Virus record (IMG/VR): IMGVR_UViG_2537561977_000008
Origin: a virus
Lineage: Duplodnaviria > Heunggongvirae > Uroviricota > Caudoviricetes
Strand: one strand, 5' to 3'
Length of the DNA stretch: 14,425 bases
In this document: piece by piece, positions 1 to 14,425 of the stretch
Layout of the letters: each line of letters opens with the position of its first letter
Numbering within the stretch: the stretch's first letter is position 1
Program-made: the position numbers and the translations under genes
The notes under the pieces: model-generated
What the model was told of the DNA's origin: nothing
Seen by the model: the letters and a program-made list of their open reading frames with translations, nothing else
Database searches by the model: none

Positions 1-251
1 ACATCCACAATGACGCGCATTACGCCAGCCTGATGGCGGTTATTCGTGAAAAGGAAGAAACACTGAAACAACGCGTGATCCGCGCGCTGGCGGGTTTTTC
101 GGGTTACGGGCGGGTGATGGTTGTCGGTGGCGGGGCGGAGATTGTGGCACCCGCTATCCGCGAAGCCTGCGGAGTTAATGCGACTTTCATCGCGGACGGG
201 GTGCCACAGTTTGCTCTGGTTAATGGGCTGTACGCAATGGACAAGGAGTAA
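1..251 (+). CDS. parM: ParM/StbA-like actin-type plasmid segregation ATPase, C-terminal fragment (5' end lies outside the window)
   Basis: The reading frame is open from the window edge (codon phase from nt 3) to TAA at 249-251. The C-terminus (VMVVGGGAEIV ... FALVNGLYAMDKE) resembles the C-terminal adenosine motif and LVNGMY tail of R1 ParM/StbA as recalled. It is followed directly by a ParR-like gene. Confidence 0.55.
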   Translation, partial: IHNDAHYASLMAVIREKEETLKQRVIRALAGFSGYGRVMVVGGGAEIVAPAIREACGVNATFIADGVPQFALVNGLYAMDKE

Positions 252-255
252 ACCA

Positions 256-567
256 ATGACGACACCAACCAGACGGATAAGTTTCTATCTGAAGCCCGCC
301 GCCGTCAAGAACGAAGGCGAAGCATGCGCCTGGCTGGACAGCCTTACACCAGAAGCCCGCAAAAGTGGTCAACGCGTGGCTTTTCTGGCCGGGCTGGCAC
401 TACTGAAAATGAATCCGGCAGAGGCTTACCGACTGGCTGCATGGGCTGATGATGAGGCGTTATCAGTGACACAAACCAGGACAGAACGCCCCGCGTCACA
501 GCCAGTATCAACCGCACAGATAACCAGTCAGATGGCCGGAAATATCCGGGCGTTATTTCCCGAATAA
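256..567 (+). CDS. parR: ParR-like partition adaptor (centromere-binding protein), 103 aa
   Basis: ATG at 256 with AGGAG 7 nt upstream. The protein (RISFYLKPAAV...LDSLTPEARKSGQRVAFLAGLALL...NIRALFPE) is co-linear with recalled R1 ParR (RTIAFKLNPDV...LDSIPQGERSRLNRAALTAGLALY...NILRSLFPKE). The 148-aa ORF in the track (121-567) is an upstream extension in the same reading frame that overlaps the parM stop region; the real start is 256. Confidence 0.55.
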   Translation: MTTPTRRISFYLKPAAVKNEGEACAWLDSLTPEARKSGQRVAFLAGLALLKMNPAEAYRLAAWADDEALSVTQTRTERPASQPVSTAQITSQMAGNIRALFPE

Positions 568-963: not shown

Positions 964-1187
964 ACAGAAAACAGAAACAAGAGTTGAAATACTTCTTACG
1001 TAAAGAAATTGCCAGGCTGGAAGATGTGGAATCTCAATCATCAGAAATTCCGTTCGGAATGGATATCAACGACGCCCGTATGCTTCAGGCATACCGCATA
1101 GCCCTGGCTGCACTACAGAGAAAAGCACCAGACATCAACCCTCGCCAACAGGAAGAACAGGAACAGCACAAAGGAGGCAACCAGTGA
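960..1187 (+). CDS. Hypothetical small helical protein, 75 aa
   Basis: ATG overlaps the upstream stop (ATGA at 960-963), indicating translational coupling. Charged, helical composition; no recognisable family. Confidence 0.45.
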
Positions 1188-1423
1188 GTAATTCAGCACG
1201 ACTACAGCTTGGTTTTTCACCGCTATCAAAAACCATCGTGTTGGCAAAAATGCGTGACTTAGGAGACGGAACAAAACGCCGCGTAGGAAATGATCGCGGT
1301 CGCGATGTAACCAACGGGGCCGCTCAACTCGTTTGGCATCTAGTCATGGCAGAAGGCGGTGAAATTAATTGGGAGCTGGATGATGGTTCTCGTATGATTT
1401 TGAGGGCCGAGAAGAGTAAATAG
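1184..1423 (+). CDS. Hypothetical protein, 79 aa
   Basis: GTG start overlaps the upstream stop (GTGA at 1184-1187) with a strong AAGGAGG 6 nt upstream. No family recognised. Confidence 0.45.
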   Translation: MSNSARLQLGFSPLSKTIVLAKMRDLGDGTKRRVGNDRGRDVTNGAAQLVWHLVMAEGGEINWELDDGSRMILRAEKSK

Positions 1424-1437
1424 CTCAAGGGGGATTA

Positions 1438-1623
1438 ATGCTAAATGATGATGAAGAAGAGCTGCTTATGCAGGAATGGTCGCTCGGTGATTATGATAAT
1501 GGTGAAAATGGGTGCCCGCATTGTGGCCGTTATCGTTTATGTATCTGCCAGAATGGAAAACACAGATGTGAAAAGTGCAATTGGTCTCCGGAACTTAATG
1601 ACTACGTGCCGATCGAGTGGTAG
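1438..1623 (+). CDS. Small Cys-rich putative zinc-ribbon protein, 61 aa
   Basis: ATG at 1438 with AGGGGG upstream. Acidic N-terminus followed by CPHC-x5-CxC-x6-CxxC. Last gene of the four-gene operon. Confidence 0.45.
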   Translation: MLNDDEEELLMQEWSLGDYDNGENGCPHCGRYRLCICQNGKHRCEKCNWSPELNDYVPIEW

Positions 1624-1663
1624 AGGTAAGTCACACTAGGTGTTTTTTAGTTGATTTTATAAA

Positions 1664-1762
1664 TGCACAATAGTGCACAAATTTGCACAATTTTTTTGAA
1701 CGACTTTTTACCCTTCCGGCCTGCGTGGCGGCTGGATCCGTCAAGGATCCGTGCGTGCACAA
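1664..1762. repeat. Four direct copies of TGCACAA in helical phase; candidate protein-binding array (terminase/cosB-like or operator)
   Basis: Copies at 1664-1670, 1674-1680 and 1684-1690 are spaced exactly 10 bp apart; a fourth at 1756-1762 is 72 bp (about 7 turns) further on. The region is AT-rich and non-coding, and also contains a GGATCCGT direct repeat (1734-1741, 1745-1752) and a near-palindromic A7-CGCGC-T5 (1761-1777). Confidence 0.5.
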
Positions 1763-2063
1763 AAAAACGCGCTTTTTCTACGAGCAGGTGACGGGGGAAC
1801 AGCCCGCGTTTCAGGGGGTAAATAGCATTCCCTGAACGATGTCGCAGAGATACAACAGAATGGCTGTATTTCTCACGCTGAGCGTGAAAAAGACGTGAGG
1901 GCTTTTGATTTGATGGGGTGAAAGGTAAGGCCGTCAAAATCGCACTGAGACGGCGAGAATATGCAGTCAACGAGGTGGGATTGCGTAAGAGTCTGACTGT
2001 CGATGATGGCAATCAGCAGGAAAGCGTCGTGAAATTATCTGACTGATACAGGAGCTGGAGAGT

Positions 2064-2088
2064 CGGGGCATAAATTTTTTATGCCCCG
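2064..2088. terminator. Stem-loop (CGGGGCATAAA-ttt-TTTATGCCCCG) 27 nt downstream of the portal stop
   Basis: Read directly: 11-bp stem with a 3-nt loop. No clean U-tract on either strand, so it may be an RNA-stabilising hairpin, a terminator for the leftward Q transcript, or part of cos. Confidence 0.3.
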
Positions 2089-2114
2089 GCGAAGCAGCAG
2101 ACAAGCGAAGCGCG

Positions 2115-3134
2115 TCAGGATGTGGGCTGGGTGTCTAACAGTGCGTAAGGGTTAAAGCGGATCACCTCTTCGCCAAGCCAGTCATTGATGTGCTTCATGG
2201 CCTCCATGACGGGCATCAGCTCGTTAATTGCGTAAACCCGCGCGGCCTTCTCCACATCACCAAACGCACTTTTTTCGCCCGGCATCGCCCCCATCAGTTG
2301 CGGCGGAACGCGGTGCGCAGCCAGCACATCATCACGGGATGCCGCCTTAACATTCATGAACTCATCCTTTGCGGTGATCTGCTGGAACGGCAAAATTTGC
2401 ACCCCCTCTTTGCCCCCGTTGGGCGCATGAATGAGCACGTTTTTAAACGCACCACCACCACGTGCCCCCTGTAGCGTTTCTTTCAGGGAGTCCATGCTTT
2501 CGCGGTTTACCTGCGCTGCACCGATGTAGATGATGCACCCGGCGTGGGATCCGTTGTCGTAGTACAGTTTTCTGAACATGTCCGCCGAATGAGAAAGGCT
2601 GGCCGAGAGTAATGCGCCAAGATATTCCGGCATGCCGTAGATTTCCTGGTTAATATCCGGATTCATCAGGTGGCACACTTTGCCAGGACGAAACTGAAAC
2701 GCATCCTTGCCATCCTGCACATACCACCATGATTCAAGATCGCTTCCGCGTCGCATGTATTTCGCCAGGGCGTGCCGTAATTTAAGCGGTTCGCCGAGCA
2801 TATTGCTCCGAAGCTCAAGGAATGCGTTACCGAACACAAACCAGTCCAGCGCCAGCGCCGAGAAATCCTGCCGGGAAAGCAGCGGGTGCGGAATATAGCA
2901 GCCGAGCAATACATTGCGCTTAAAGTAAAGCGCAGACTGATGCCAGGACGTTTGCCGGGCAGCTCTTGCCAGACCGTACCAGTCCACCGGGGTTTCATAC
3001 CACCGCCCGTTATCAGCACAGTACATATTGTCCAGCAGGTCATGCCCGGTCAGGCGGTAAGGACCATCAAATGTGAATGCACTGAGCGACGATTCTTTCC
3101 TGAGCGCATCAGCGAGATCAATGCGTGAACTCAT
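2115..3134 (-). CDS. Q: Portal protein (P2 gpQ-like), 340 aa
   Basis: Long minus-strand ORF. The start is chosen at the internal ATG (MSSRIDLADAL...) so that it does not overlap the upstream terminase gene. Size and position (downstream of terminase large, next to the cos-side end) match P2 Q. Confidence 0.85.
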   Translation of the reverse strand: MSSRIDLADALRKESSLSAFTFDGPYRLTGHDLLDNMYCADNGRWYETPVDWYGLARAARQTSWHQSALYFKRNVLLGCYIPHPLLSRQDFSALALDWFVFGNAFLELRSNMLGEPLKLRHALAKYMRRGSDLESWWYVQDGKDAFQFRPGKVCHLMNPDINQEIYGMPEYLGALLSASLSHSADMFRKLYYDNGSHAGCIIYIGAAQVNRESMDSLKETLQGARGGGAFKNVLIHAPNGGKEGVQILPFQQITAKDEFMNVKAASRDDVLAAHRVPPQLMGAMPGEKSAFGDVEKAARVYAINELMPVMEAMKHINDWLGEEVIRFNPYALLDTQPTS

Positions 3135-3159
3135 GCGCACTTTTTTATTTTTCTGCTCA

Positions 3160-4912
3160 TCAGAACTCCATAACCGTGAAACGCTCGTTTTCTCCTTCGC
3201 CGCCAATCGGTTCGTTAATGACAGCAAGCATGGTTGCCCACGCAAGGTCGCCGTGGCTGATCCCCCTCGCGCGGTCCGTTTCGTAAGTGATAAAACCGCC
3301 CGGTGTTTTCACCTTACGCACGGCGTTAAAGGCCGCAACCAGCTCGCGTTCGGCGCGATCGTATTCCCACCGCCCGGCACGCATTATTTGCAGCATTTTC
3401 AGTACCAGCGACCGTTTTGATGACAGCGTGAAGGTGTAAGGGATGGCGGCGGGAAAAAACCGTTTCACTATCTGATAGACGGCATCCCCGTGCCCGCCCG
3501 TCGCATCAATGCCGATGTGTTCCACGTTGTAGCGATACGTGAACTCTTCAATAACTCTGGCCTGCTCTTCAAAATTCCAGCCCCTGAACGCGTCGCGTCT
3601 CCACCGTTCTGAAACGACTACCAGGAACAGCCGGAGGAACCACCACGGACACAGCGCCGCTGTCGCCGTTACCACTGCTGCCGTTTGCGTCATACCCAAT
3701 CCATACCGGACGATTCCCCATCGGGCGGGGGGCAAAGGGTTTCCAGTCTTTCCAGTCGTCGTATCCGTCAACACCGCAGCCAATCAGGATATTCAGGTTA
3801 AATGCCGATTCCCCTTCGCGGACAAACTCACACATATAGAGATTGCGGAACTCGTCTTCGGTGTTTTCATCACGAATTTCATCAATATCGGTGTGTTTCC
3901 AGCCGTGATTAACCACATCTTCCAGCGTGACAATTTGCCGCCACGTCCGGTCAGGGCAGATAAGCCCGTTATGCAGCGTTTTCCAGTCCACAGAAAAACG
4001 CTGGCGTTTATGCGCGGCCTTTTTCTCGTTCCAGCGGTCGCCGTTCCAGTAGGCGTATGCCTCGTGCGTTTCGGTGGATGGCGTGGAGAAGCAGGTGCGC
4101 CGCAGTCCGCTGAGGGTTGCCATAGCGCCAGCCACCTTGCGCAGTTCAGCAAAGCGACTGACCCAGAAAAATTCATCAAAATAAAAATTGCCCGTGTAAG
4201 ATTGCGCCGTCGCAGCAGAAGTGCCGAGAAAATGCATCTCTGCGCCGTTGGAGAGGATGATTTTATCGCCCCCTTTCAGCTCCACATCGACTTCAGCCGC
4301 GGCCTTCTGAATAATGCTTTTAAACTGGAACGCCTGACGACGCGACGCAGACAAAAAAATCTGGTTACACTGGTAAGGTTGTGCCACATCGTCACGCAGC
4401 GCCATCAGCAGTGCTTCCTGTGCAAAATACCAGGTCGCCCCAATCTGTCGGGATTTCAGGATCATCCTGTTACGTATCCCGGCTTCCCTGCAAAGCGTCA
4501 GGGAGTCAAACCAGCCCCGCTGATGCCACTCCAGCCTGCTGATGATTTTTTCCCGCAGTGCGGCAATCTGTTCCGGCGTGAAATGATTTTTGAGTTTTTT
4601 CGCCCGGCCTTTCTTTCCTGTGGCCGTCGCATCCGGCTGGCCATCATGCAGTTTTTTAAGCTGCCGGGTCAGCAGGTCTATTTCCTTAAAGTCACCACCT
4701 GTTTTATTCTGTTTTTCAGTAAGCTGGATGAGGCGCGCATCGATGGACTGCGTGACACGCTGCACGGGTGGCGTTTCATCCCACTGGTCGCGTTTTTTCC
4801 ACGCATAAATCGTGTTCGGGTTTATTCCCATCAGACGTGATATTTCTGCGGGCGGATAACCCTGCCAGTAAAGTTGCCGCGCACGCTGGCGCACAAAAGC
4901 GTCCTGAATCAT
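3160..4912 (-). pseudogene. P: Terminase large subunit (P2 gpP-like ATPase/nuclease), split into two frames by a 1-nt indel in a homopolymer run
   Basis: The N-terminal 447-aa ORF (3569-4912) matches recalled P2 P (ILKSRQIGATWYF, NQIFLSAS, FLGTSAATAQSY, FSTPST, NRPVWIGYD). The C-terminal 207-aa ORF (3160-3783, other frame) carries the rest (YNVEHIGIDATG...HGDLAWATM...MEF). The frames switch at the CCCC run on the + strand at 3581-3584. Confidence 0.85.
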
Positions 4913-5073
4913 TGCTCCCCCTGAGTAATTACAGGAAGATTACCCGCGCGCGAAACCGTTCTCCTTAACCCCCTGTTCTGGCCGTTTTCTTACAACAAAA
5001 GCCCTTTGTATCAGCCTGTTACGCTTTGCCATCATGACTGAAGAACCAGTCAGAGGGGCAAAAACTATGGCTA
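4913..5073. promoter_or_regulatory. Divergent intergenic region between P (leftward) and O (rightward); expected site of activator-dependent late promoters
   Basis: 161 bp between divergent morphogenesis operons, as in P2 where the Ogr-dependent P and O promoters lie here. A partial dyad TGT-N15-ACA is at 4974-4994. No clear sigma70 -35 element, consistent with activator dependence. Confidence 0.4.
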
Positions 5074-5904
5074 ATGAAAAAAGAGACATCCCGCAAAAAG
5101 TTTCGCGTGGCTGTCTCCGGATCAACTGTTGATGGCCGTGAAATCAGTCCGGTGCATCTGCGTGAAGCCGCCGAGAACTTCAACCCGGATGTTTACGCTG
5201 CCCGCGTGAACGTTGAGCACTATCTCTCGCCATGCCCGTCAAGCGAATTTTCCGCAATGGGCGATGTCACCGCACTGAGTACGGAAGACATTACGGAAGG
5301 TCCGCTGGCCGGACGTACTGCGCTGTATGCAGAAATCGAACCGACCGAGCGCATGAAGCAGCTTGTCGCGGACGGCAAGAAAATCTATTCCAGTATCGAA
5401 CTGCACCCGCAGTTCTCCGTTAACGGGCGCGCCTATCTGGTCGGGCTGGCGATGACCGACACCCCGGCAAGCCTGGGCACTGAGCGCCTGAAATTCACGG
5501 CACAGCAACGTCAGGCGGTGATGACGTTCAACAGTATCCAGGGTGAAGCACCGCTTATCTCCGAAGCCATCGAGTCTGAAATCATCGAAATGGCAGAACA
5601 ACGCCAGGAAGAAGGCACCCAGTGGTTTAACCGCGTAATGGGGATTATTGGTCGTGGCCGCAAAGCGGATGACGCCAGTTTCTCCCGTATTCAGGAAGCG
5701 GTGGAAAGCGTCGCAACGTCACAGGCCGACATTATCGACCGTTTTAATGCGCTGGAAACACGCCATCAGCAGGACAGCCAGAAAATCACTTTACTGACCA
5801 CGGAGCTGACAGCACTGAAGGAAAAACTGCGCACGCAGGACGGCGATCCGCAGAACCGGTTCACCGCAACGGGCGCAGCCTCCGACCAGCTGGCTGACTT
5901 CTGA
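5074..5904 (+). CDS. O: Capsid scaffolding protein (P2 gpO-like), 276 aa
   Basis: The N-terminus (KKFRVAVSGSTVDGREISPVHLREAAENFNP ... YLVGLAMTDTPASLGTE) is co-linear with recalled P2 gpO. The ATG at 5067 is out of frame and stops after 20 codons, so 5074 is the start. Confidence 0.85.
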   Translation: MKKETSRKKFRVAVSGSTVDGREISPVHLREAAENFNPDVYAARVNVEHYLSPCPSSEFSAMGDVTALSTEDITEGPLAGRTALYAEIEPTERMKQLVADGKKIYSSIELHPQFSVNGRAYLVGLAMTDTPASLGTERLKFTAQQRQAVMTFNSIQGEAPLISEAIESEIIEMAEQRQEEGTQWFNRVMGIIGRGRKADDASFSRIQEAVESVATSQADIIDRFNALETRHQQDSQKITLLTTELTALKEKLRTQDGDPQNRFTATGAASDQLADF

Positions 5905-5927
5905 TAAGACAAAGGAGCAAATTTTTT

Positions 5928-6977
5928 ATGAATCTGGTGATGTCAGATATTACCCGCAACAAGCTGGGTTGCTATATGGCGCAGCAGGCGTCGCTTAACA
6001 ATATCCCGGTTTCTGCACTGGTATCGCGATTTACCGTGGAACCTGCGGTGCAGCAACGTTTTGAAAACGCCTCAAAGGATAGCACCGAACTTACAAAAAA
6101 TTAACGTGATCGGCGTGACCGACCAGAAAGGCGAAAAATCCTCCTGGACACCACAGGACCGATTGCACGCACAAATACCAGTTATGACGGAACAAAACGC
6201 CGTAACCCGAATAACGTGGTTGATCTGAAAAACCGCAAATACCAGTGCGAACAGGTGAGCTACGACACGTTTATTTCGTATCCGCAGCTTGATGCCTGGT
6301 CGGCACACAGCGATTTTCAGTCCCGCATCAGCGCACAGATTGCCCGACAGGTGGCACTTGACCGCATCATGATCGGTTTCAACGGCACATCTCACGCGGA
6401 TGAGTCCAACTTCAGCACCAACAAGCTGCTTCAGGACGTTAACGTGGGGTGGCTGGAGCACATCAGAACCAATGCCAGCGAGCGCGTAATGAATGACGTG
6501 ACGCTGACTTCCCGCAACATGGACAACACCGTGGCGCACGCGGGTAAATACGCGAACCCTGATGCACTGGTACAGGACGCGCGCTCATCTCTGCTGGATG
6601 AATGGCACAAGGAAGCTGACGACCTCGTGGTGATTATGGGGCGCAACCTGTTTAACTCGCTGCGTCTGCCAGTGCTGAACAGCATCAGCGGCCAGAATCC
6701 CAATGCGGAATTACTTGCCGGGCAGCTCATCCTGTCATCGCGCACCATTGGCGGGCTGGGTGTGTTCCTTGCACCGTTCTTCCCGGATGCAACGATGCTG
6801 ATCACCTCATTCAACAACCTGTCGATTTACTGGCAGAAAGGTTCAATGCGTCGTCTGATGAAAGACGAACCGGAATACAACCGCATCGCCACCTACCAGT
6901 CCATCAATGACGCTTATGTCGTTGAAGACTATGGCAAGTGCGCGATGGTCACTGGCCTGAAGTTCGCCGACAGCTAA
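5928..6977 (+). pseudogene. N: Major capsid protein (P2 gpN-like) with two compensating 1-nt indels in A-runs 38 nt apart
   Basis: AAGGAG sits 10 nt before ATG 5928. Frame 0 reads MNLVMSDITRNKL...FTVEPAV then hits TAA at 6102-6104. The +1 frame carries INVIGVTDQKGEK (P2: INIVPVSEMKGEK), and frame 0 resumes with ILLDTTGPIARTNTS...KYQCEQ... through to 6977. The shifts are at A6 (6095-6100, one A too many) and A5 (6134-6138, one A too few). Confidence 0.85.
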
Positions 6978-6986
6978 TCAACTCAC

Positions 6987-7005
6987 GGCGGGCATCATGC
7001 CCGCC
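6987..7005 (+). terminator. GC-rich hairpin (GGCGGGCA-tca-TGCCCGCC) immediately after the major capsid gene; candidate partial terminator or mRNA stabiliser
   Basis: Read directly: 8-bp stem with a 3-nt loop, 10 nt after the capsid stop, with no U-tract. A common arrangement for keeping capsid mRNA above downstream terminase mRNA. Confidence 0.4.
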
Positions 7006-7022
7006 TGTAACGGAGAGAAAAA

Positions 7023-7828
7023 ATGATTACTCCTGCACAGCAACACTGGCAGAACGTGATGGCACAGCGCGCAGGCCGGGCGAATGAAGGTGTGGACCAC
7101 GCCGCGCGTACCGCGCATGAAGAGGTGCTGTATCGTCTGCGTCTGGCACAGGCCCGGCTTAAGGGCGTACAGGCCAGAAGCGCGAAAGCCGACATCAAAA
7201 AAGCGTTGTTGCCGGACTTTTCCGGCTGGATTGAGGGAACGCTGGAGGCTGACGCGGGCAACAGGACGAAGTGATTGCCACGCTGATGGTGTGGGCGATT
7301 GACTGCGGCGATCTTCCGCTTGCGCTGCGTATTGGTGCGTATGCGGTCCGTCACAACCTCATCATGCCGGATAACTTTGGCCGTACTGCTGCCACAGTGC
7401 TGACCGAAGAAATCTGCAATCCGGTACTGACGCAGGCCGGGACGGATGCCGACGCGGATTTGTCCGTCTTTATCGAACCACTGGACACACTTTGGGAAAT
7501 TGTCGCCAACCAGGATATGCCGGACGAAGTGCGCGCCAAATTATGCAAGGCGTGCGCCTTTGCCCGCCGTGGCCTGAGCGATGCGGACAGCATGGCCTCA
7601 TCACTGAAGCTGCTGCGCGAAGCGATGCATCTGAACCAGAACGCAGGTGTGAAACGCGAGATTGCAACCCTTTCCCGCGCCCTGAAAAAAGCCGATTCCG
7701 CAGCCGCACCAGAAGACGCCAGCGCACAGCAGGCGCAGGACGAAAGCAGCGAAAGTAAAAAGACAACGCGGAAGCCTGCAACACGAAAACCACCGCGACG
7801 CAGAAGGCGAAGCGCGGTTAACGACTGA
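7023..7828 (+). pseudogene. M: Terminase small (endonuclease) subunit (P2 gpM-like), frameshifted by a 1-nt deletion
   Basis: GGAG is 7 nt before ATG 7023. ORF 7023-7274 (MITPAQQHW...LEADAG) continues in the -1 frame as QQDEVIATLMVWAIDCGDL...DMPDEVRAKL... to 7828. This is co-linear with recalled P2 M (MTSPAQRHM...GKGAQDDILMTVMLW...ADMPDEVRAKL). The shift is at the GGG run at 7256-7258. Confidence 0.8.
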
Positions 7829-7837
7829 CCCCGTCAG

Positions 7838-7908
7838 CGGGCGGCGTGCGCGGTGTTCCGGTTTGGCTCCGTGACCGTTTACACCGCGCACCCACCGCCC
7901 GATTTTTT
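7838..7908 (+). terminator. Large interrupted stem-loop followed by a T6 tract between M and L; candidate intrinsic terminator or attenuator
   Basis: Left arm CGGGCGG-c-GTGCGCGGTG (7838-7855) pairs with right arm CACCGCGCAC-cca-CCGCCCG (7882-7901): 17 bp with one internal bulge and a 26-nt loop. It is followed by ATTTTTT (7902-7908), then the RBS GGAG for L. Confidence 0.45.
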
Positions 7909-7922
7909 CAGGAGTGAACCCC

Positions 7923-8418
7923 ATGAGTATGGTTGCCAGAACTGAACCCGGCCCCGCAGAGGACGACATCACCGACACCGAAGATGGCGATACCCGTATT
8001 TCAGCGGGTGCATTCTGGCCGGATATTGTGCTGCGCGAGCTGCGTCTGGCGGTACGACGTGCCGGGCCGCGTGACCACCTCCCGCCTGCTGCATACCGCC
8101 ACCGGGGCCGTGGCACACGTTACCCGCGAGCCGGAAGCATGGCAGCAGGAACAGCAGGCGGCTGGCCATCAGACGCTGGCCGATGTTCCGGCACCCGTAA
8201 TTAACGGAGAAAGCGTCAATCTCTGGCACTGGCGCAATGCTGTTTATACCGCCACACGCGCCCTGATTCTGGAGCGTTACCGCGATGCGGACACAACGGA
8301 CAAGGGCGACCGCCGGGCGGACGCACTGGATATACAGACATCGGATTTGTGGCGCGATGTGAGCTGGGCCATCTCTGACATTCTGTGCCGCCCGCGAATC
8401 TTTGCGGAGTTGTGCTGA
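7923..8418 (+). pseudogene. L: Head completion/stabilisation protein (P2 gpL-like), frameshifted
   Basis: The N-terminal frame (…FWPDIVLRELRLAV) matches P2 L (FFPDIDPKRVRERMRLEQTV). The C-terminal two-thirds lies in the +1 frame (…LADVPAPVINGESVNLWHWRNAV...ERYRDADTTDKGDRRADALDIQTSDLWRDVSWAI...; P2: LADVPADDIDGESIKVFYYERAV...ERYRGVDATAKGDKKADSIDSTIDELWRDMRWAV). The frame switch is somewhere in 8050-8085. Confidence 0.75.
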
Positions 8419-8613
8419 TGAAAGTGAAGGCACTGGAAGGCGACACCGTGGATTCGCTCTGTTTCCGGTACTACGGCACGACGCAGGGCGTCACCGAAAA
8501 GGTGCTGGATGCCAACCCCGGACTCTGCCGACAGGTATTTCTGGAAGCCGGACAGGAGGTGGAAATGCCGGAGTCGGAGAAGAAAACAACGAGAGATGAT
8601 ACAGCTATGGTAA
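8418..8613 (+). CDS. X: Tail protein X (P2 gpX-like); as given it reads through in frame into the holin, and a 1-nt insertion in an A-run is suspected
   Basis: ATG 8418 overlaps the L stop (TGATG). MKVKALEGDTVDSLCFRYYGTTQGVTEKVLDANPGL matches recalled P2 X (MKTFALQGDTLDAICVRYYGRTEGVVETVLAANPGL). The expected C-terminus (…EMIQLW, stop TAA 8611-8613 overlapping the holin ATG) is in the +1 frame after the AAAA run at 8582-8585. Confidence 0.55.
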
Positions 8614-8909
8614 CAGGTTTTTTTCAGCGGGTGAGTGACTGGATCACCTTCTGGGCATCAGTCACAGCCACCACAATAGGCGTGATGACCATCAGTGAAA
8701 AAATCGCCCTTGCCGGGTTGTTACTCGGTTCTCTGTCTGCATTACATGCCTGGCGACATCGCCGCCTGATGGAAACCGCCATGCAGCGTCGCAATGAACT
8801 CATCGCCAGTATCCTGGCGCAGTCAGACGCACGGCCACTTCACGACAGTGAGCGTCAGGCTCTGAACATTCTGCGGGATAACGATACACATGATAAAGCT
8901 GCCCGTTAA
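8607..8909 (+). CDS. Class II holin (two TM segments; pinholin-like), about 100 aa
   Basis: ATG 8607 sits in an ATGGTAA overlap with the presumed X stop. There are two hydrophobic segments (WITFWASVTATTIGVMTI and IALAGLLLGSLSALHAW) followed by a highly charged C-terminal tail. It lies immediately upstream of a SAR-type endolysin. Confidence 0.6.
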   Translation: MVTGFFQRVSDWITFWASVTATTIGVMTISEKIALAGLLLGSLSALHAWRHRRLMETAMQRRNELIASILAQSDARPLHDSERQALNILRDNDTHDKAAR

Positions 8910-9456
8910 ACGTTACGCCGTAGCCGCCATTGTGGCGCTGGGGTTCTCCATTGCCCCTCACAAACTCCGGACCAGCCCGGAAGCGCAAATCCGCATTGCC
9001 ACATGGGAGGACTGTCGCGCAACGCCTTACCGGGATATTGCCGGGGTAATGACCGTGGGGTGCGGCTCGACCGGGCATGTGGAAAATCGTCTGTACACCG
9101 AAACGGAAGTCGCCGGGCGCTGGGTTAATGATATGCAACATGCAGAAAACTGCATAAATCAGAACTTCAGCGGCAACGCCATGCCACAGTCCGCGTTTGA
9201 GGCAATGACAGATGCCGCCTTTAATCTTGGATGCAGAAATCTTATGTGGTTCAGGGATAAGAACCGTAACTACCACCGCACCACTATCTGGAAACATGCA
9301 CAGGCGCACAACTGGCCTGACATGTGCAACAGACTGACTGACTTCGTGAACAGCGGCGGCGAACGCTCACAGGGACTGGTTAACCGTCGTACTGATTTTC
9401 GTGCATGGTGCTTACGTGACACCGGAGGCCAGTCAAGAAAGTGCGTTACATCCTGA
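8890..9456 (+). CDS. SAR endolysin, glycoside hydrolase family 24 (T4/lambda-R type lysozyme), 188 aa
   Basis: N-terminal signal-anchor-like hydrophobic stretch (YAVAAIVALGFSIA) followed by the GH24 catalytic signature E...D...T (ATWEDCRATPYRDIAGVMTVGCGSTGH). This is not the P2 gpK type. Confidence 0.8.
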   Translation: MIKLPVKRYAVAAIVALGFSIAPHKLRTSPEAQIRIATWEDCRATPYRDIAGVMTVGCGSTGHVENRLYTETEVAGRWVNDMQHAENCINQNFSGNAMPQSAFEAMTDAAFNLGCRNLMWFRDKNRNYHRTTIWKHAQAHNWPDMCNRLTDFVNSGGERSQGLVNRRTDFRAWCLRDTGGQSRKCVTS

Positions 9457-9908
9457 TGATGGCACTGACCGTCCTCACGCTGCTGACCATAACACTCTGG
9501 CAGACATTCAGACTGGGGCAGGAAGACGGACACAACCGTTATACACAGGCGCAACTGGACGATTACAGCCGGACCCTGAAAGAGGCCGGCACCATCATCA
9601 GCACCGCATCCGGTGTACTGCGTGACGTCATGACAGCGCGCCAGAACCGACAACAGGAAGGGGAAATCCGACGTGAACAGCTACGCAACGATATCACGAC
9701 AGATGCATGTGCCCGCGCTGTTCCTGACGCTCGCTTTACTGAGCGGTTGCACCAGCACGCAGAACGCGTCCGCGCCGCCGCCGTCGTTCCGTTTCATCCC
9801 GGAAGGGCTGACCGCCCCCGTACTTCCCCCGCCGTTTCCGGTGACGCCATCATGGGGAAACATCGGGATATGGAGCGACAGCCTCATGGACGCACTGGAA
9901 ACCTGTAA
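9441..9908 (+). CDS. i-spanin (Rz/LysB-like inner-membrane spanin subunit)
   Basis: N-terminal TM helix (ILMMALTVLTLLTITLW) followed by a charged periplasmic region. The o-spanin gene is embedded in its 3' half in another frame. The start could be GTG 9441 (GGAGG upstream) or ATG 9456. Confidence 0.6.
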   Translation: MRYILMMALTVLTLLTITLWQTFRLGQEDGHNRYTQAQLDDYSRTLKEAGTIISTASGVLRDVMTARQNRQQEGEIRREQLRNDITTDACARAVPDARFTERLHQHAERVRAAAVVPFHPGRADRPRTSPAVSGDAIMGKHRDMERQPHGRTGNL

Positions 9909-9993
9909 CGCCGATAAGCGGGCCATTGAATTACTGGAACAGCGCAGGCTGCAACGACTGAACAACGAGGACAACAACCATGCTGAAAACTGA
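9673..9993 (+). CDS. o-spanin (Rz1/LysC-like outer-membrane lipoprotein), overlapping the i-spanin gene
   Basis: Lipoprotein signal with lipobox (FLTLALLSGC), a Pro-rich mature region, and the typical overlapped architecture inside and extending past the i-spanin gene. An alternative start is ATG 9703. Confidence 0.65.
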   Translation: MNSYATISRQMHVPALFLTLALLSGCTSTQNASAPPPSFRFIPEGLTAPVLPPPFPVTPSWGNIGIWSDSLMDALETCNADKRAIELLEQRRLQRLNNEDNNHAEN

Positions 9994-10446
9994 TTCCCTG
10001 CGTGAAGCCATGACCCGTTCATGCCGGTGGTGTCATGCCAACCCGGAAAAATTCACCATTTTCGTGGAGAGCGGCAACATTGAAACGACCGGAGAAACCC
10101 CATCGTTTGTTTACCGCTATCAGATAGTGATGTTTGTCATGGATTACGCCGGAGAGCTGGACGACCTCACGCTGCCGCTGCTGGCGTGGTTATCCGAAAA
10201 TCAGCCACAGTTGTTGCTCAATCCGGAGCGTAATCAGGACATCAAATTTTCCGCCGTTATCAATGACGATGACAGCGCCGATCTCCTGTTTACGCTCCCC
10301 CTGCGGGAACGCGTTCGCATCACGCGCAGCAGTCAGGGCACACCGCAGGCAGAACACCTGCCGGAGCCAAAACCCCGCCTGCCCTCTTCCGAAGGCGACT
10401 GGTCGCATGTATTCCAGGATGTGACGTGGGGGAAAGCGATGGATAA
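9980..10446 (+). CDS. R: Tail completion protein R (P2 gpR-like); as given it reads through into S, probably because of a 1-nt deletion in a G5 run
   Basis: The N-terminus (MLKTDSLREAMT...KFTIFVESGNIETT...LPLLAWLSENQP) matches recalled P2 R. As given, the frame continues without a stop into the S-like sequence (one 364-aa ORF, 9980-11074). Adding one G to the run at 10428-10432 would end R at TAA 10444-10446, overlapping the S ATG (ATGGATAA). Confidence 0.6.
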
Positions 10447-11074
10447 GGCATTCACCCGCGTGGATGAAACCTTTGAGGCTATCCGCGACAGCCTGAATCA
10501 GCAGGCCATTAATAACATCGCCAGAAAGCTGGCACAGGATTTACGCCGCGCCCAGCAGGCGCGTATCCGGTCACAGAAAGCGCCGGACGGGACCGCATGG
10601 ACACCACGCAGACGCCGCGTAACCCGGATACAGGAGCGCATTCGCTTTATCTGGAATAACGAAGCACGCACGCTGAAAAACTGGCATCACGACACGGGGA
10701 AATACGGGCGAACCATCACCGGGTGGGATGAGGATAAAAACAATATCCGCACGTTTTACCGGGATGACATCGACCGTTTTCTGGAAATACGCACCCGGCG
10801 CATCAACCAGGACAGCACCAGGCGCGTCTCCATGTTCGTAAAACTGCGCACCGCCCGCTACCTGAAAGCCCGTGCAGATGCTTCCGGTGTGACGGTGGGT
10901 TACAGCGGCGTGGCCGCACGTATTGCACGCGTTCATCAGTTCGGTGAGCGCGATCAGGTTGCGCCGGGCATTTTCACCGATTACCCGGTACGTGAGCTGC
11001 TGGGTATCAGCCAGGCAGATGAGCGCCTGATTTATAACACGGTGCTGGGCAGGATTGCGGAGGCTGTACGATGA
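10439..11074 (+). CDS. S: Tail completion / virion morphogenesis protein S (P2 gpS-like)
   Basis: Internal ATG at 10439. The C-terminal region (…VGYSGVAARIARVHQFGERDQVAPG...YPVRELLGIS) is typical of the phage virion morphogenesis (gpS) family. The stop overlaps the V start (ATGA at 11071). Confidence 0.6.
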   Translation: MDKAFTRVDETFEAIRDSLNQQAINNIARKLAQDLRRAQQARIRSQKAPDGTAWTPRRRRVTRIQERIRFIWNNEARTLKNWHHDTGKYGRTITGWDEDKNNIRTFYRDDIDRFLEIRTRRINQDSTRRVSMFVKLRTARYLKARADASGVTVGYSGVAARIARVHQFGERDQVAPGIFTDYPVRELLGISQADERLIYNTVLGRIAEAVR

Positions 11075-11652
11075 GCGCAGAACTCATGCGACTGCTGAGC
11101 AATATCATCCGCACCGGGATCATCTCTGAAGTTGATGAGGAATCCTGGTGCGTGCGCGTTCGCAGCGGCGAACTGGAAACAGGCTGGCTGCGCTGGAACA
11201 CCACGCGCGCGGGAGACTTCAACGTGTGGTTTCCGCCATCACCAGGCGAACAGGTGGCAATTGCCTGCATCGGCGGCAACCCGGAAACCGCCATGATAAT
11301 CGGCAGCCTGTGGAGTGATGCCATTCCGGCACCCGGCAAAAGCCTGAAAGAAATCGTGGTCAGCGCGCCGGACGGCGCGGTGTTCCGCTACGACGCGGAC
11401 GCAGGCGCACTGAGCGCAAGCGGCATGAAAACGGCCACTTTGCAGGCATCCATCAGCGTGACACTGAACACGCCTGTCGTGGAATGCACAGACCTTCTGA
11501 GAACAGCGACGCTTGACGTCACAAAAGGGGGAACGATGAGCGGCAATATCACGCACAGCGGCGGCGATTTCACCTCAAACGGCATCACAGTGCATACGCA
11601 TAAGCACGGTGGCGTTAAAGGTGGCAGCGATTCGACAGGAGGCCCGCAGTGA
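11071..11652 (+). CDS. V: Baseplate assembly / spike protein V (P2 gpV-like), 193 aa
   Basis: IRTGIISEVDEE...FPPSPGEQVAIACIGG...KGGTMSGNITHSGGDFTSNGITVHTHKH matches recalled P2 V (IRTGIIVETD...APSVGEQVLILAVGG...KGGTMRGNIEHTGGELSSNGKVLHTHKH). Confidence 0.85.
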   Translation: MSAELMRLLSNIIRTGIISEVDEESWCVRVRSGELETGWLRWNTTRAGDFNVWFPPSPGEQVAIACIGGNPETAMIIGSLWSDAIPAPGKSLKEIVVSAPDGAVFRYDADAGALSASGMKTATLQASISVTLNTPVVECTDLLRTATLDVTKGGTMSGNITHSGGDFTSNGITVHTHKHGGVKGGSDSTGGPQ

Positions 11653-11999
11653 CAACCCGCTACACAGGAATGAACCCGGACGGGACGGGAAACCTGAACG
11701 ATATGGCGCACCTGAAACAGTCAGTCAGGGACATCCTGACCACCCCGCTGGCAAGCCGGGTTATGCGACGGGAATATGGCAGCCTTGTGCCTGATTTGAT
11801 TGACGAACCCATGAATAACACCACGCGTCTGCAATGCATGAGTGCTACCGTGATTGCACTGACACGATGGGAACCACGCATTGCCCTGAACGCCATCGAC
11901 GTTGTCTGGAAGGCAGGAGGCCACGCCGGGGTGACGCTGTCGGGCACTGTCATGCAGACCATGCAGAATGTTGAATTAACCATCACGCTGAGGGAGTAA
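11649..11999 (+). CDS. W: Baseplate protein W (P2 gpW / gp25-like), 116 aa
   Basis: GTG start overlaps the V stop (GTGA). Size and position between V and J match P2 W. Confidence 0.8.
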   Translation: MTTRYTGMNPDGTGNLNDMAHLKQSVRDILTTPLASRVMRREYGSLVPDLIDEPMNNTTRLQCMSATVIALTRWEPRIALNAIDVVWKAGGHAGVTLSGTVMQTMQNVELTITLRE

Positions 12000-12002
12000 A
12001 TC

Positions 12003-12899
12003 ATGCCTGCCGTTGACCTTTCCCAGTTACCGGAACCCGCCATCATCGCGGAGCCTGACTTTGAGGCAATTCTGGCTGACACAAAGGCCATGATGATTGC
12101 AGCTTATCCCGCCGAACAGCGTGAAGTCGTCTCCGCCGCACTGGAACTGGAATCGGAACCCCTGAACGTTATCGCTCAAACCATGTCGTTTCGTGAAATG
12201 CTGTTACGCCAGCGGGTCAATGAGGCCGCACGCGCCTGCATGTTGAGCCACAGCGCCGGAACAGACCTGGACAACCTCGCGGGCAATATGAACACAAAGC
12301 GCCTGGTTATCACTCCGGCAACGGATACCACCGACGTGGTGATGGAGAACGACACCTCGCTGAGACTGCGGGCGCAGCGGGCGTATGACGGCCTGAGTGT
12401 TGCAGGCCCGTCAGGCGCATACGAGTATTTTGCCCGCAGCGCCAGCGGTCTGGTGCGCGATGCGCGGGCCATCAGTCCGTCTCCGGCAAATGTGACGGTT
12501 TCCATCCTGTCCACTGAGGGCGACGGCACAGCAACGGAGGCGTTGCTTAATACCGTTCGCGCCGTTCTGAATGCAGAGGATACCCGCCCGGTGGCCGACC
12601 GCCTGACCGTACAGAGTGCCAGAATCGTGACATGGCGGCTGAATGCAAAACTGTACTTTTACCCCGGTCCGGAATCCGAACCTATTCTGGCTGCGGCTGA
12701 ATCGTCGTTCAGGAAGTGGCTGGCTGAGCAGGGGCTTATCGGTCAGGACGTGGCGTTGTCCGCCATTGCTGCCGCACTGCATGTGCACGGTGTGCAACGC
12801 GTGGAGATAATCGAACCCACACAGAATATGGCCATCAGCGACATACAGGCGGCGCGCTGTGAGTCATTCACCATCAGCGAAGGTGGGCGTAATGAGTAA
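12003..12899 (+). CDS. J: Baseplate assembly protein J (P2 gpJ-like), 298 aa
   Basis: AGGGAG RBS upstream. Size and synteny (V-W-J-I) match P2 J. Confidence 0.85.
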   Translation: MPAVDLSQLPEPAIIAEPDFEAILADTKAMMIAAYPAEQREVVSAALELESEPLNVIAQTMSFREMLLRQRVNEAARACMLSHSAGTDLDNLAGNMNTKRLVITPATDTTDVVMENDTSLRLRAQRAYDGLSVAGPSGAYEYFARSASGLVRDARAISPSPANVTVSILSTEGDGTATEALLNTVRAVLNAEDTRPVADRLTVQSARIVTWRLNAKLYFYPGPESEPILAAAESSFRKWLAEQGLIGQDVALSAIAAALHVHGVQRVEIIEPTQNMAISDIQAARCESFTISEGGRNE

Positions 12900-13422
12900 T
12901 TCACTGTTACCACCATCAGCCAGCAATTTCATGCGTTGTGCCGAAGCCGTCGGAACACGCATTACAGACATTCCGGCAGACCTCAACACGCTGTGGTCGC
13001 CGGACACCTGCCCGGTGCATCTGCTGCCTTATCTCGCCTGGGCGTTTTCCGTTGACCGCTGGGATCGCAACTGGCCGGAAGAGACAAAGCGACAGGTGAT
13101 TCGTGATGCATGGCTGATACACCGACACAAAGGAACCATCAGCGCCCTGCGACGGGCCATTGAGCCGCTGGGATACCTCATTCGCGTGTCTGAGTGGTGG
13201 GAGTTCAACGGCGAACCCGGAACATTCAAGATTGATGTTGGCACGCTGGACAGTGGCGTGACGGAGGAAATGTATCTGGAAATGGAGCGGTTGATTGCTG
13301 ATGCCCGCCCGGTCAGCCGCCACATGACAGGGCTGAATATCATTCAGGAGATTCAGGGAGATATTTTCGCGGCAGCAGCAACTTACGACGGTGAAGTCAT
13401 TACCATTTATCCGGACGATTAA
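12892..13422 (+). CDS. I: Tail/baseplate protein I (P2 gpI-like), 176 aa
   Basis: Start is taken at ATG 12892, overlapping the J stop (MSNSLLPPSASNF...), rather than the longer in-frame ORF start at 12859. Size and synteny match P2 I. Confidence 0.8.
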   Translation: MSNSLLPPSASNFMRCAEAVGTRITDIPADLNTLWSPDTCPVHLLPYLAWAFSVDRWDRNWPEETKRQVIRDAWLIHRHKGTISALRRAIEPLGYLIRVSEWWEFNGEPGTFKIDVGTLDSGVTEEMYLEMERLIADARPVSRHMTGLNIIQEIQGDIFAAAATYDGEVITIYPDD

Positions 13423-13424
13423 GC

Positions 13425-14425
13425 ATGAGTACCACAACACGAAAATTTAAAACCATTATCACCGATACGGGTGCAAAAAATTAGCGCAGGCAACCGCGCC
13501 AGATGGGAAACCTGTCCGCCTGACACATATGGCCGTGGGTGACGGCGGCGGTACTTTACCCACGCCAGACAGTAAGCAGACCCGTCTTGTGCATGAGGTG
13601 TGGCGACATACCGTTAATCGCGTCACCCTGGACGCAACACATCAGAACCACATTATTGCGGAGCTGGTTATTCCTCCTGAAACGGGCGGATTCTGGATCC
13701 GGGAAATTGGTGTGTTTGATGAGCACGGCGATTTGATCGCGGTAGGCAATACTGCCGAAAGTTACAAGCCAACCGTTGCCGAAGGATCCGGACGTGCACA
13801 AACATTTCGCACCATTCTGACCGTATCCAGCACTGCCACTGTGGCGCTTACCGTGGATAACACCATGGTGATGGCCACAGTGAATTACGTGGATGACAAA
13901 CTGAAAGAGCATGAACAGTCACGACGTCACCCGGACGCCTCGCTGACCGCAAAAGGCCTTGTCCAGCTCAGCAACGCCACCAACAGCACGTCTGAAACGC
14001 TGGCAGCGACACCAAAAGCCGTTAAGGCAGTAATGGATGAAACGAACAAGAAAGCCCCATTAAACAGCCCGGCACTGACCGGAACGCCAACAACACCAAC
14101 TGCGCGACAGGGAACGAATAATACCCAAATCGCAAGCACGGCTTTCGTTATGGCTGCGATTGCCGCACTTGTAGACTCTTCGCCTGATGCACTGAACACA
14201 CTGAACGAGCTGGCGGCGGCGCTGGGCAACGACCCGAATTTTGCGACCACCATGACTAACGCGCTTGCGGGTAAGCAACCGAAAGATGCCACTCTGACGG
14301 CGCTGGCGGGGCTTGCTACTGCGGCAGACAGGTTTCCGTATTTTACGGGGAATGATGTCGCCAGCCTGGCAACCCTGACAAAGTCGGGCGGATATTCTTG
14401 CGAAATCGACCGTTGCCGCCGTTAT
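13425..14425 (+). pseudogene. H: Tail fibre protein H (P2 gpH-like), N-terminal part; 3' end outside the window; frameshifted by homopolymer deletions
   Basis: ATG 13425 gives MSTTTRKFKTIITDTGAKN then stops at TAG 13482-13484. The -1 frame continues as LAQATAPDGKPVRLTHMAVGDGGG...IAELVIPPETGGFW...HEQSRRHPDASLTAKG...LAATPKAVK... to the window end, closely matching recalled P2 H. The shift is at the A6 run at 13475-13480. The last ~30 nt show two more single-base losses (ACAAAG and GGGCGG versus the expected ACAAAAG and GGGCGGG). Confidence 0.8.

Follow-up and report, generated by a model that had tools for sequence, protein, structure and literature searches.

Paired A-run deletions in the major capsid gene of an Escherichia coli LT-68 prophage contig are very probably base-run length miscalls of a draft assembly

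When a prophage major capsid gene leaves its reading frame at one A run, meets a stop codon, and regains the frame at a second A run only 12 codons later, does this reflect programmed recoding, a decaying pseudogene, or an error in the sequence? The question is raised by a stretch of 14,425 nucleotides (the window), which is the whole of contig ADUP01000048.1 from the draft assembly GCA_000188815.2 of E. coli LT-68 and consists of the late-gene region of a P88-like prophage (Xuanwuvirus, P2 family). The left part of the window carries a parM fragment, a partition gene, and small genes, followed by the portal and large terminase genes on the minus strand. The plus strand encodes, in order, the scaffold, the capsid, gpM, gpL, gpX, the lysis genes, R, S, V, W, J, I, and the start of the tail-fibre gene H. 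Its closest relative is the prophage of E. coli FDAARGOS_943 (NZ_CP065615.1), which matches it at 99.8% identity across all 14,425 bases. Literature searches with the strain name returned one passing mention, as ETEC (PMC4038620), while the WGS accession returned nothing, and a sequencing method was not found in these searches.

The major capsid gene, a homologue of P2-family gpN, occupies positions 5928–6977 of the plus strand, as do all of its features described here. It is flanked by the scaffold (GPO) and gpM genes and lies opposite the portal and large terminase genes, an arrangement evident from both the ORF layout and four annotated relatives. From the ATG at 5928, the ORF runs for just 58 amino acids to a frame-0 TAA at 6102–6104, and two ORFs of the same frame, 5928–6104 and 6216–6977, make up the gene. 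The first lesion is an A6 run at 6095–6100. Three-frame translation places the 12 frame-0 codons of 6099–6134 (N*RDRRDRPERR) out of register and locates the homologous peptide, INVIGVTDQKGEK, in the +1 frame between approximately 6100 and 6138. The TAA is a product of the frame error, as its bases are found within the codons ATT AAC of the intact gene. The second lesion is an A5 run at 6134–6138, after which frame 0 picks up at ILLDTTGPIA and stays open to the stop at 6975–6977. Thus, with a stop at 6102–6104 and a change of frame over 6100–6138, the gene as written does not form an uninterrupted reading frame. It also carries a single window-private substitution, A>G at 6259, which encodes Ser112 in place of the Asn found in all relatives.

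Alignments and a run census revealed A8 and A6 at the two runs in FDAARGOS_943, P88, CFIAFB20190157, CP044191.1, CP026802.1, and four IMG/VR contigs. The second run is A6 in 29 of the 29 other copies examined, whereas the first is A7 in some copies and in UTI89 reads AAAAAGAA, i.e. an interrupted tract. Relative to the A8/A6 arrangement of intact relatives, the window lesions are therefore both deletions, of two bases and of one. Because these sum to −3, the gene measures 1050 nt rather than the 1053 nt found in 16 related phage records, and the frame returns after 12 codons. Otherwise, the gene is 95–96.5% identical to those of phages Chuche, 500465-2, and P88. The A6/A5 state is absent from the 862 complete E. 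coli genomes having the 161-nt stretch around the lesions, among which the best identity is 98.2% and the best 40 matches all span 164 nt. Likewise, neither IMG/VR nor the GTDB representative genomes contain an exact copy of a 63-mer of the lesion region, and the 58-aa N-terminal fragment is recorded on one contig only, ADUP01000048.1, as 'major capsid domain protein [Escherichia coli LT-68]'.

Adding back AA at the first run and A at the second yields a 350-aa capsid protein that differs from those of three near-identical prophages only by N112S. This repaired protein scores 382.9 bits against PF05125 (curated cut-off, 27 bits) and covers positions 4–324 of the 327-position model, while the pieces as written score 302.3 bits (253 aa) and 24.6 bits (58 aa), the latter under the cut-off. 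The repaired gene is a typical P2-family capsid gene and presents nothing new. An earlier note on this DNA, made from its letters alone, had already recognized a P2-like major capsid gene and had correctly placed the A6 and A5 runs, the TAA, and the 12-codon out-of-frame stretch. It had, however, taken the lesions for indels of opposite sign, with one A too many in the first run and one too few in the second. Comparison with related capsid genes at the nucleotide level, which the note had proposed as a check, bears out the missing A of the second run (A6), but the first run of the relatives is A8 and not the expected A5. One surplus A is the same modulo 3 as two missing A's, yet it is factually wrong, and the repair predicted from it (A5 and A6) does open the frame but yields a protein one Lys shorter than that of any relative.

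Could the gene be expressed as it stands? A full-length capsid protein would result either from RNA polymerase slippage or from ribosomes that move by +1 at the first A run and by −1 at the next, in which case LT-68 phage particles would hold the capsid peptide ...ELTKINVIGVTDQKGEKILL.... Both sites are A runs decoded by lysine tRNA, which is able to slip, and the net frame is indeed regained after 12 codons. Yet the configuration is not conserved, as all other copies examined have either an unbroken ORF or the A7 lesion alone, and no copy with A6/A5 was found in the 862 complete E. coli genomes, the 16 phage records, IMG/VR, or the GTDB representative genomes. Even the tract itself is not conserved, since it is interrupted in UTI89. 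While A_AAA_AAT would suit a −1 heptamer, the −1 frame closes after three codons, and the productive frame requires +1 followed by −1, which such a slippery site does not provide. Moreover, two low-efficiency events in series presumably could not yield the most abundant protein of the virion. With A6/A5 not conserved and the −1 frame closed, we rejected recoding, which we consider extremely improbable.

The capsid gene is one of many affected genes in the window. Relative to FDAARGOS_943, the window has 9 substitutions and 13 indel events, which together affect 15 bases and almost all fall in base runs, and at 13 of the 13 indel sites P88, UTI89, and CFIAFB20190157, which are 4–5% divergent, have the frame-preserving length. 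About eight or nine genes are broken, among them those for the portal, terminase, scaffold, capsid, gpM, gpL, gpX, and tail fibre. On the minus strand, T6 has become T5 close to where the portal gene begins (its 5' end; 3147–3148), a change otherwise present in just one Logan assembly, and A3 has become A4 in the large terminase gene (3568–3571), splitting it into ORFs of 447 and 207 aa. On the plus strand, the scaffold gene opens with an A7G that is read as A6GAG, with an extra base (5077–5085). The small terminase gene gpM is split into 83-aa and 185-aa ORFs by GG to G at 7253–7254 and also has A5 shortened to A4 near its 3' end (7786–7789), while the head-completion gene gpL is frameshifted by an extra G at 8059, outside any run. 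Further downstream on the same strand, A6 to A4 at 8579–8582 fuses gpX to the following ORF, the tail-fibre gene has A7 to A6 at its start (13475–13480), a change otherwise present only in the other LT-68 contig, and two changes 10 nt apart within the tail-fibre gene (14379–14391), A4 to A3 and G3 to G2, are found only in both LT-68 contigs.

Several other variable sites were encountered in this region and its relatives. Around the end of gpX, the A6 run at 8579–8582 and a T7 run at 8618–8624 vary in length in several older drafts and Logan assemblies, such that the same long runs are repeatedly altered across different assemblies. A window-private T>A at 9436 turns the stop codon of the lysozyme gene from TGA into AGA, so that the ORF continues for six more codons, and also removes the overlapping start codon (ATG) of the lysis gene that follows. 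At 10423–10427, the window has a G5 run, FDAARGOS_943 and seven other assemblies have G6, and P88 and UTI89 have GGGGTG. G5 fuses the tail-completion genes R and S into a 364-aa ORF, and an identical protein is encoded in CP044191.1 and CP026802.1. Because it is common to two complete genomes, this run variant is probably real, or else a recurrent miscall. The CP044191.1 prophage additionally carries IS3-family insertions in its tail-fibre region (15889–17045 and 18849–20005 of L005, our extract of that prophage) and a G-run deletion that cuts its large terminase to 480 aa (L005:3486–4928), indicating that this prophage lineage truly decays in some hosts.

In the LT-68 assembly, contig ADUP01000059.1 ends with a second copy of this late region (13.3 kb), in which L023:5245–18503 corresponds to window positions 1163–14425. 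Both contigs stop at exactly the same base, inside the tail-fibre gene H. Their left arms differ, however: window positions 1–565 are only 96.5% identical, and 566–1162, a module that includes a ClpX-type zinc-finger protein, is without counterpart in ADUP01000059.1. These differing arms rule out that the window as a whole is merely a 'shadow' duplicate of that contig, though reads of the two copies may have been mixed over the common 13.3 kb. We counted private changes in an 11-way alignment of the common region, in which the two LT-68 contigs were set against nine further assemblies of this prophage. Private indel columns number 8 in the window and 8 in ADUP01000059.1, versus 0–1 per assembly in the other nine, and private substitutions number 7 and 1 in the two LT-68 contigs, respectively. 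The window has further indels in common with a few assemblies, and most of its indels fall in base runs. Three indels near the common contig end (13474, 14379, and 14389) occur only in the two LT-68 contigs. The indel excess is thus a property of the assembly and not of the phage lineage, and it takes the form of assembly-specific changes in run length that fall regardless of gene function, as would be expected of an artefact.

Since run slippage commonly degrades prophages, the lesions could in principle all be real, with both LT-68 copies decaying, perhaps in a mutator strain, and the capsid a pseudogene with two slippage deletions. That damage is present in both copies and that relatives carry seemingly real run variants, such as G5 at 10427 and the terminase G-run deletion of CP044191.1, would fit such a history. 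However, indels constitute 15 of the 23 private changes (65%), compared with 5,324 of 35,385 (15%) even in mutation-accumulation lines of mismatch repair-deficient E. coli (bioRxiv 10.1101/2021.08.23.457454), a difference with a binomial P = 7e-8. Furthermore, several lesions sit in runs of 1–3 bases, where slippage is rare, and 3 of the 7 window-private substitutions are transversions; neither feature suits a slippage or mismatch-repair spectrum. Five of these seven substitutions are non-synonymous, which is uninformative, as differences among the complete genomes are likewise mostly non-synonymous. We rejected a mutator origin on this spectrum, and, with the nine other assemblies of this prophage nearly free of private indels, wholesale genuine decay is very unlikely.

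The earlier note had favored sequence error over recoding, a preference that agrees with the assembly-private lesions in run length and the lack of conservation of A6/A5, but it had also called the pairing of the two capsid lesions striking, and in this it did not hold up. The proportion of mis-sized runs in the contig rises from 2 of 9,728 for runs of ≤3 bases to 1 of 100, 1 of 38, 3 of 20, 1 of 6, and 1 of 1 for runs of 4, 5, 6, 7, and 8 bases, respectively. The capsid runs, which are 33 nt apart, are the sole 8-run and one of the twenty 6-runs in the region, and these are the classes most often mis-sized. In simulations placing ~12 indel events in 13.3 kb, the probability of at least one frame-restoring adjacent pair within 40 nt was 0.19 with uniform placement and 0.13 with placement weighted by run length. 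Among the dozen or so homopolymer lesions of this draft, the capsid pair is therefore a coincidence that does not go beyond chance.

A shorter first run also occurs outside the window. At least 16 contigs, drawn from 10 or more samples, have A7 followed by an intact A6 second run (among our loci L008–L027, e.g. L019:10001–10183 and L022:10001–10183); their sources include Shigella sonnei drafts, old SRA runs, LT-68 contig ADUP01000059.1, and two recent samples, GCA_047953875.1 and SRR29249332, in which the capsid is the only broken late gene. None of the complete E. coli genomes has A7 at 100% identity. Both A8 and A7 exist in near-identical prophages, and A7 may mark either a site where slippage truly recurs or a consistent under-call. 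The A7 copies are largely from older drafts, where miscalls are conceivable, and the tract is interrupted in UTI89. One could imagine the A8 tract as a natural hot spot toggling between an 'on' state (A8) and an 'off' state (A7 or A6), as a reversible switch or a recurrent path to domestication of the prophage, with at least the first LT-68 lesion being real; we consider this quite unlikely.

A mixed origin would have the LT-68 copy truly A7, and hence a capsid pseudogene, from which the draft then lost one further A as well as one at the next run. The presence of A7/A6 in the other LT-68 contig and in the samples listed above would favor it, as would an exchange of reads between the two LT-68 copies, which is conceivable because the contigs have a 13.3-kb near-identical stretch in common and end at the same base. 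On the other hand, the regions flanking the capsid (1167–1783 and 8196–8574) carry the markers of FDAARGOS_943, which has A8, and A7 itself, which no complete E. coli genome shows at 100% identity, may be a systematic under-call of older drafts. A mixed origin is therefore unlikely.

Taken together, the comparisons indicate that the capsid lesions are very probably base-run length miscalls of a low-quality LT-68 draft, with neither recoding nor a notable pseudogene involved, and we attribute the interruption of the capsid frame to sequence error. The consensus would have under-called the longest A runs here, as at about ten other runs in the contig, and, with −2 and −1 totaling −3, the frame would come back by accident after 12 codons. 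Reads of the two-copy 13.3-kb repeat, split between two contigs, may have aggravated the miscalling. From the lesions, their confinement to this assembly, and their spectrum, we infer the sequencing chemistry or the assembly to be the cause. The ADUP accession series, which we take to date from about 2011, suggests the pyrosequencing era. The second run of the true prophage is almost certainly A6, while the first would be A8, giving an intact 350-aa capsid, or possibly A7. Against miscalling, real slippage also prefers long runs, and the A8 tract may be one where it genuinely recurs. In addition, A7 recurs in at least 16 contigs, including the two recent samples with no other broken late gene, and one homopolymer variant of the window itself, G5 at 10427, is probably real.

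What follows from these results is chiefly quality control, in the form of a warning about one assembly and the GenBank fragments derived from it. The contig, and probably the whole LT-68 draft, is unfit for inferring pseudogenes, recoding, or prophage decay. Frame errors or run variants account for entries like EFZ57402.1 (58 aa), EFZ57404.1 (253 aa), and possibly EFZ57412.1 (364 aa). Had the lesions been real, they would merely describe one more dead prophage, and even a true on/off switch in the A tract would make a modest addition to the knowledge of prophage domestication.

Set beside known systems, the locus is most like the FDAARGOS_943 capsid, WP_001055080.1 (also present in CP044191.1 and CP026802.1), to which the repaired protein is identical at 349 of 350 positions and with which it has the scaffold-capsid-gpM order in common; the window differs from FDAARGOS_943 by lacking three A's in two runs, by N112S, and by 12 further indel bases in other genes. 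The capsid of phage P88 (YP_009113069.1; Xuanwuvirus, Peduoviridae) is likewise a PF05125 protein, encoded by 1053 nt with A8 and A6 at the same positions and ~95% nucleotide identity. It has 15 amino-acid differences from the repaired protein and comes from a complete, functional phage genome. The A7 allele of the Shigella sonnei 53G and 3226-85 drafts and others (60-aa EFZ54993.1, ...ELTKKLT) resembles the window in its shortened tract and N-terminal capsid fragment, but it is a single −1 lesion with the second run intact and is found in many independent samples, whereas A6/A5 is confined to this contig. Homopolymer-length errors of flow-based or long-read sequencing are a known class of artefact in draft assemblies. 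The window lesions are like that class in that they become more common with run length, are mostly deletions, are confined to one assembly, and are scattered over all genes regardless of function, and unlike it in that three insertions are not simple run extensions. The capsid lesion belongs to this well-known class and adds nothing new to it.
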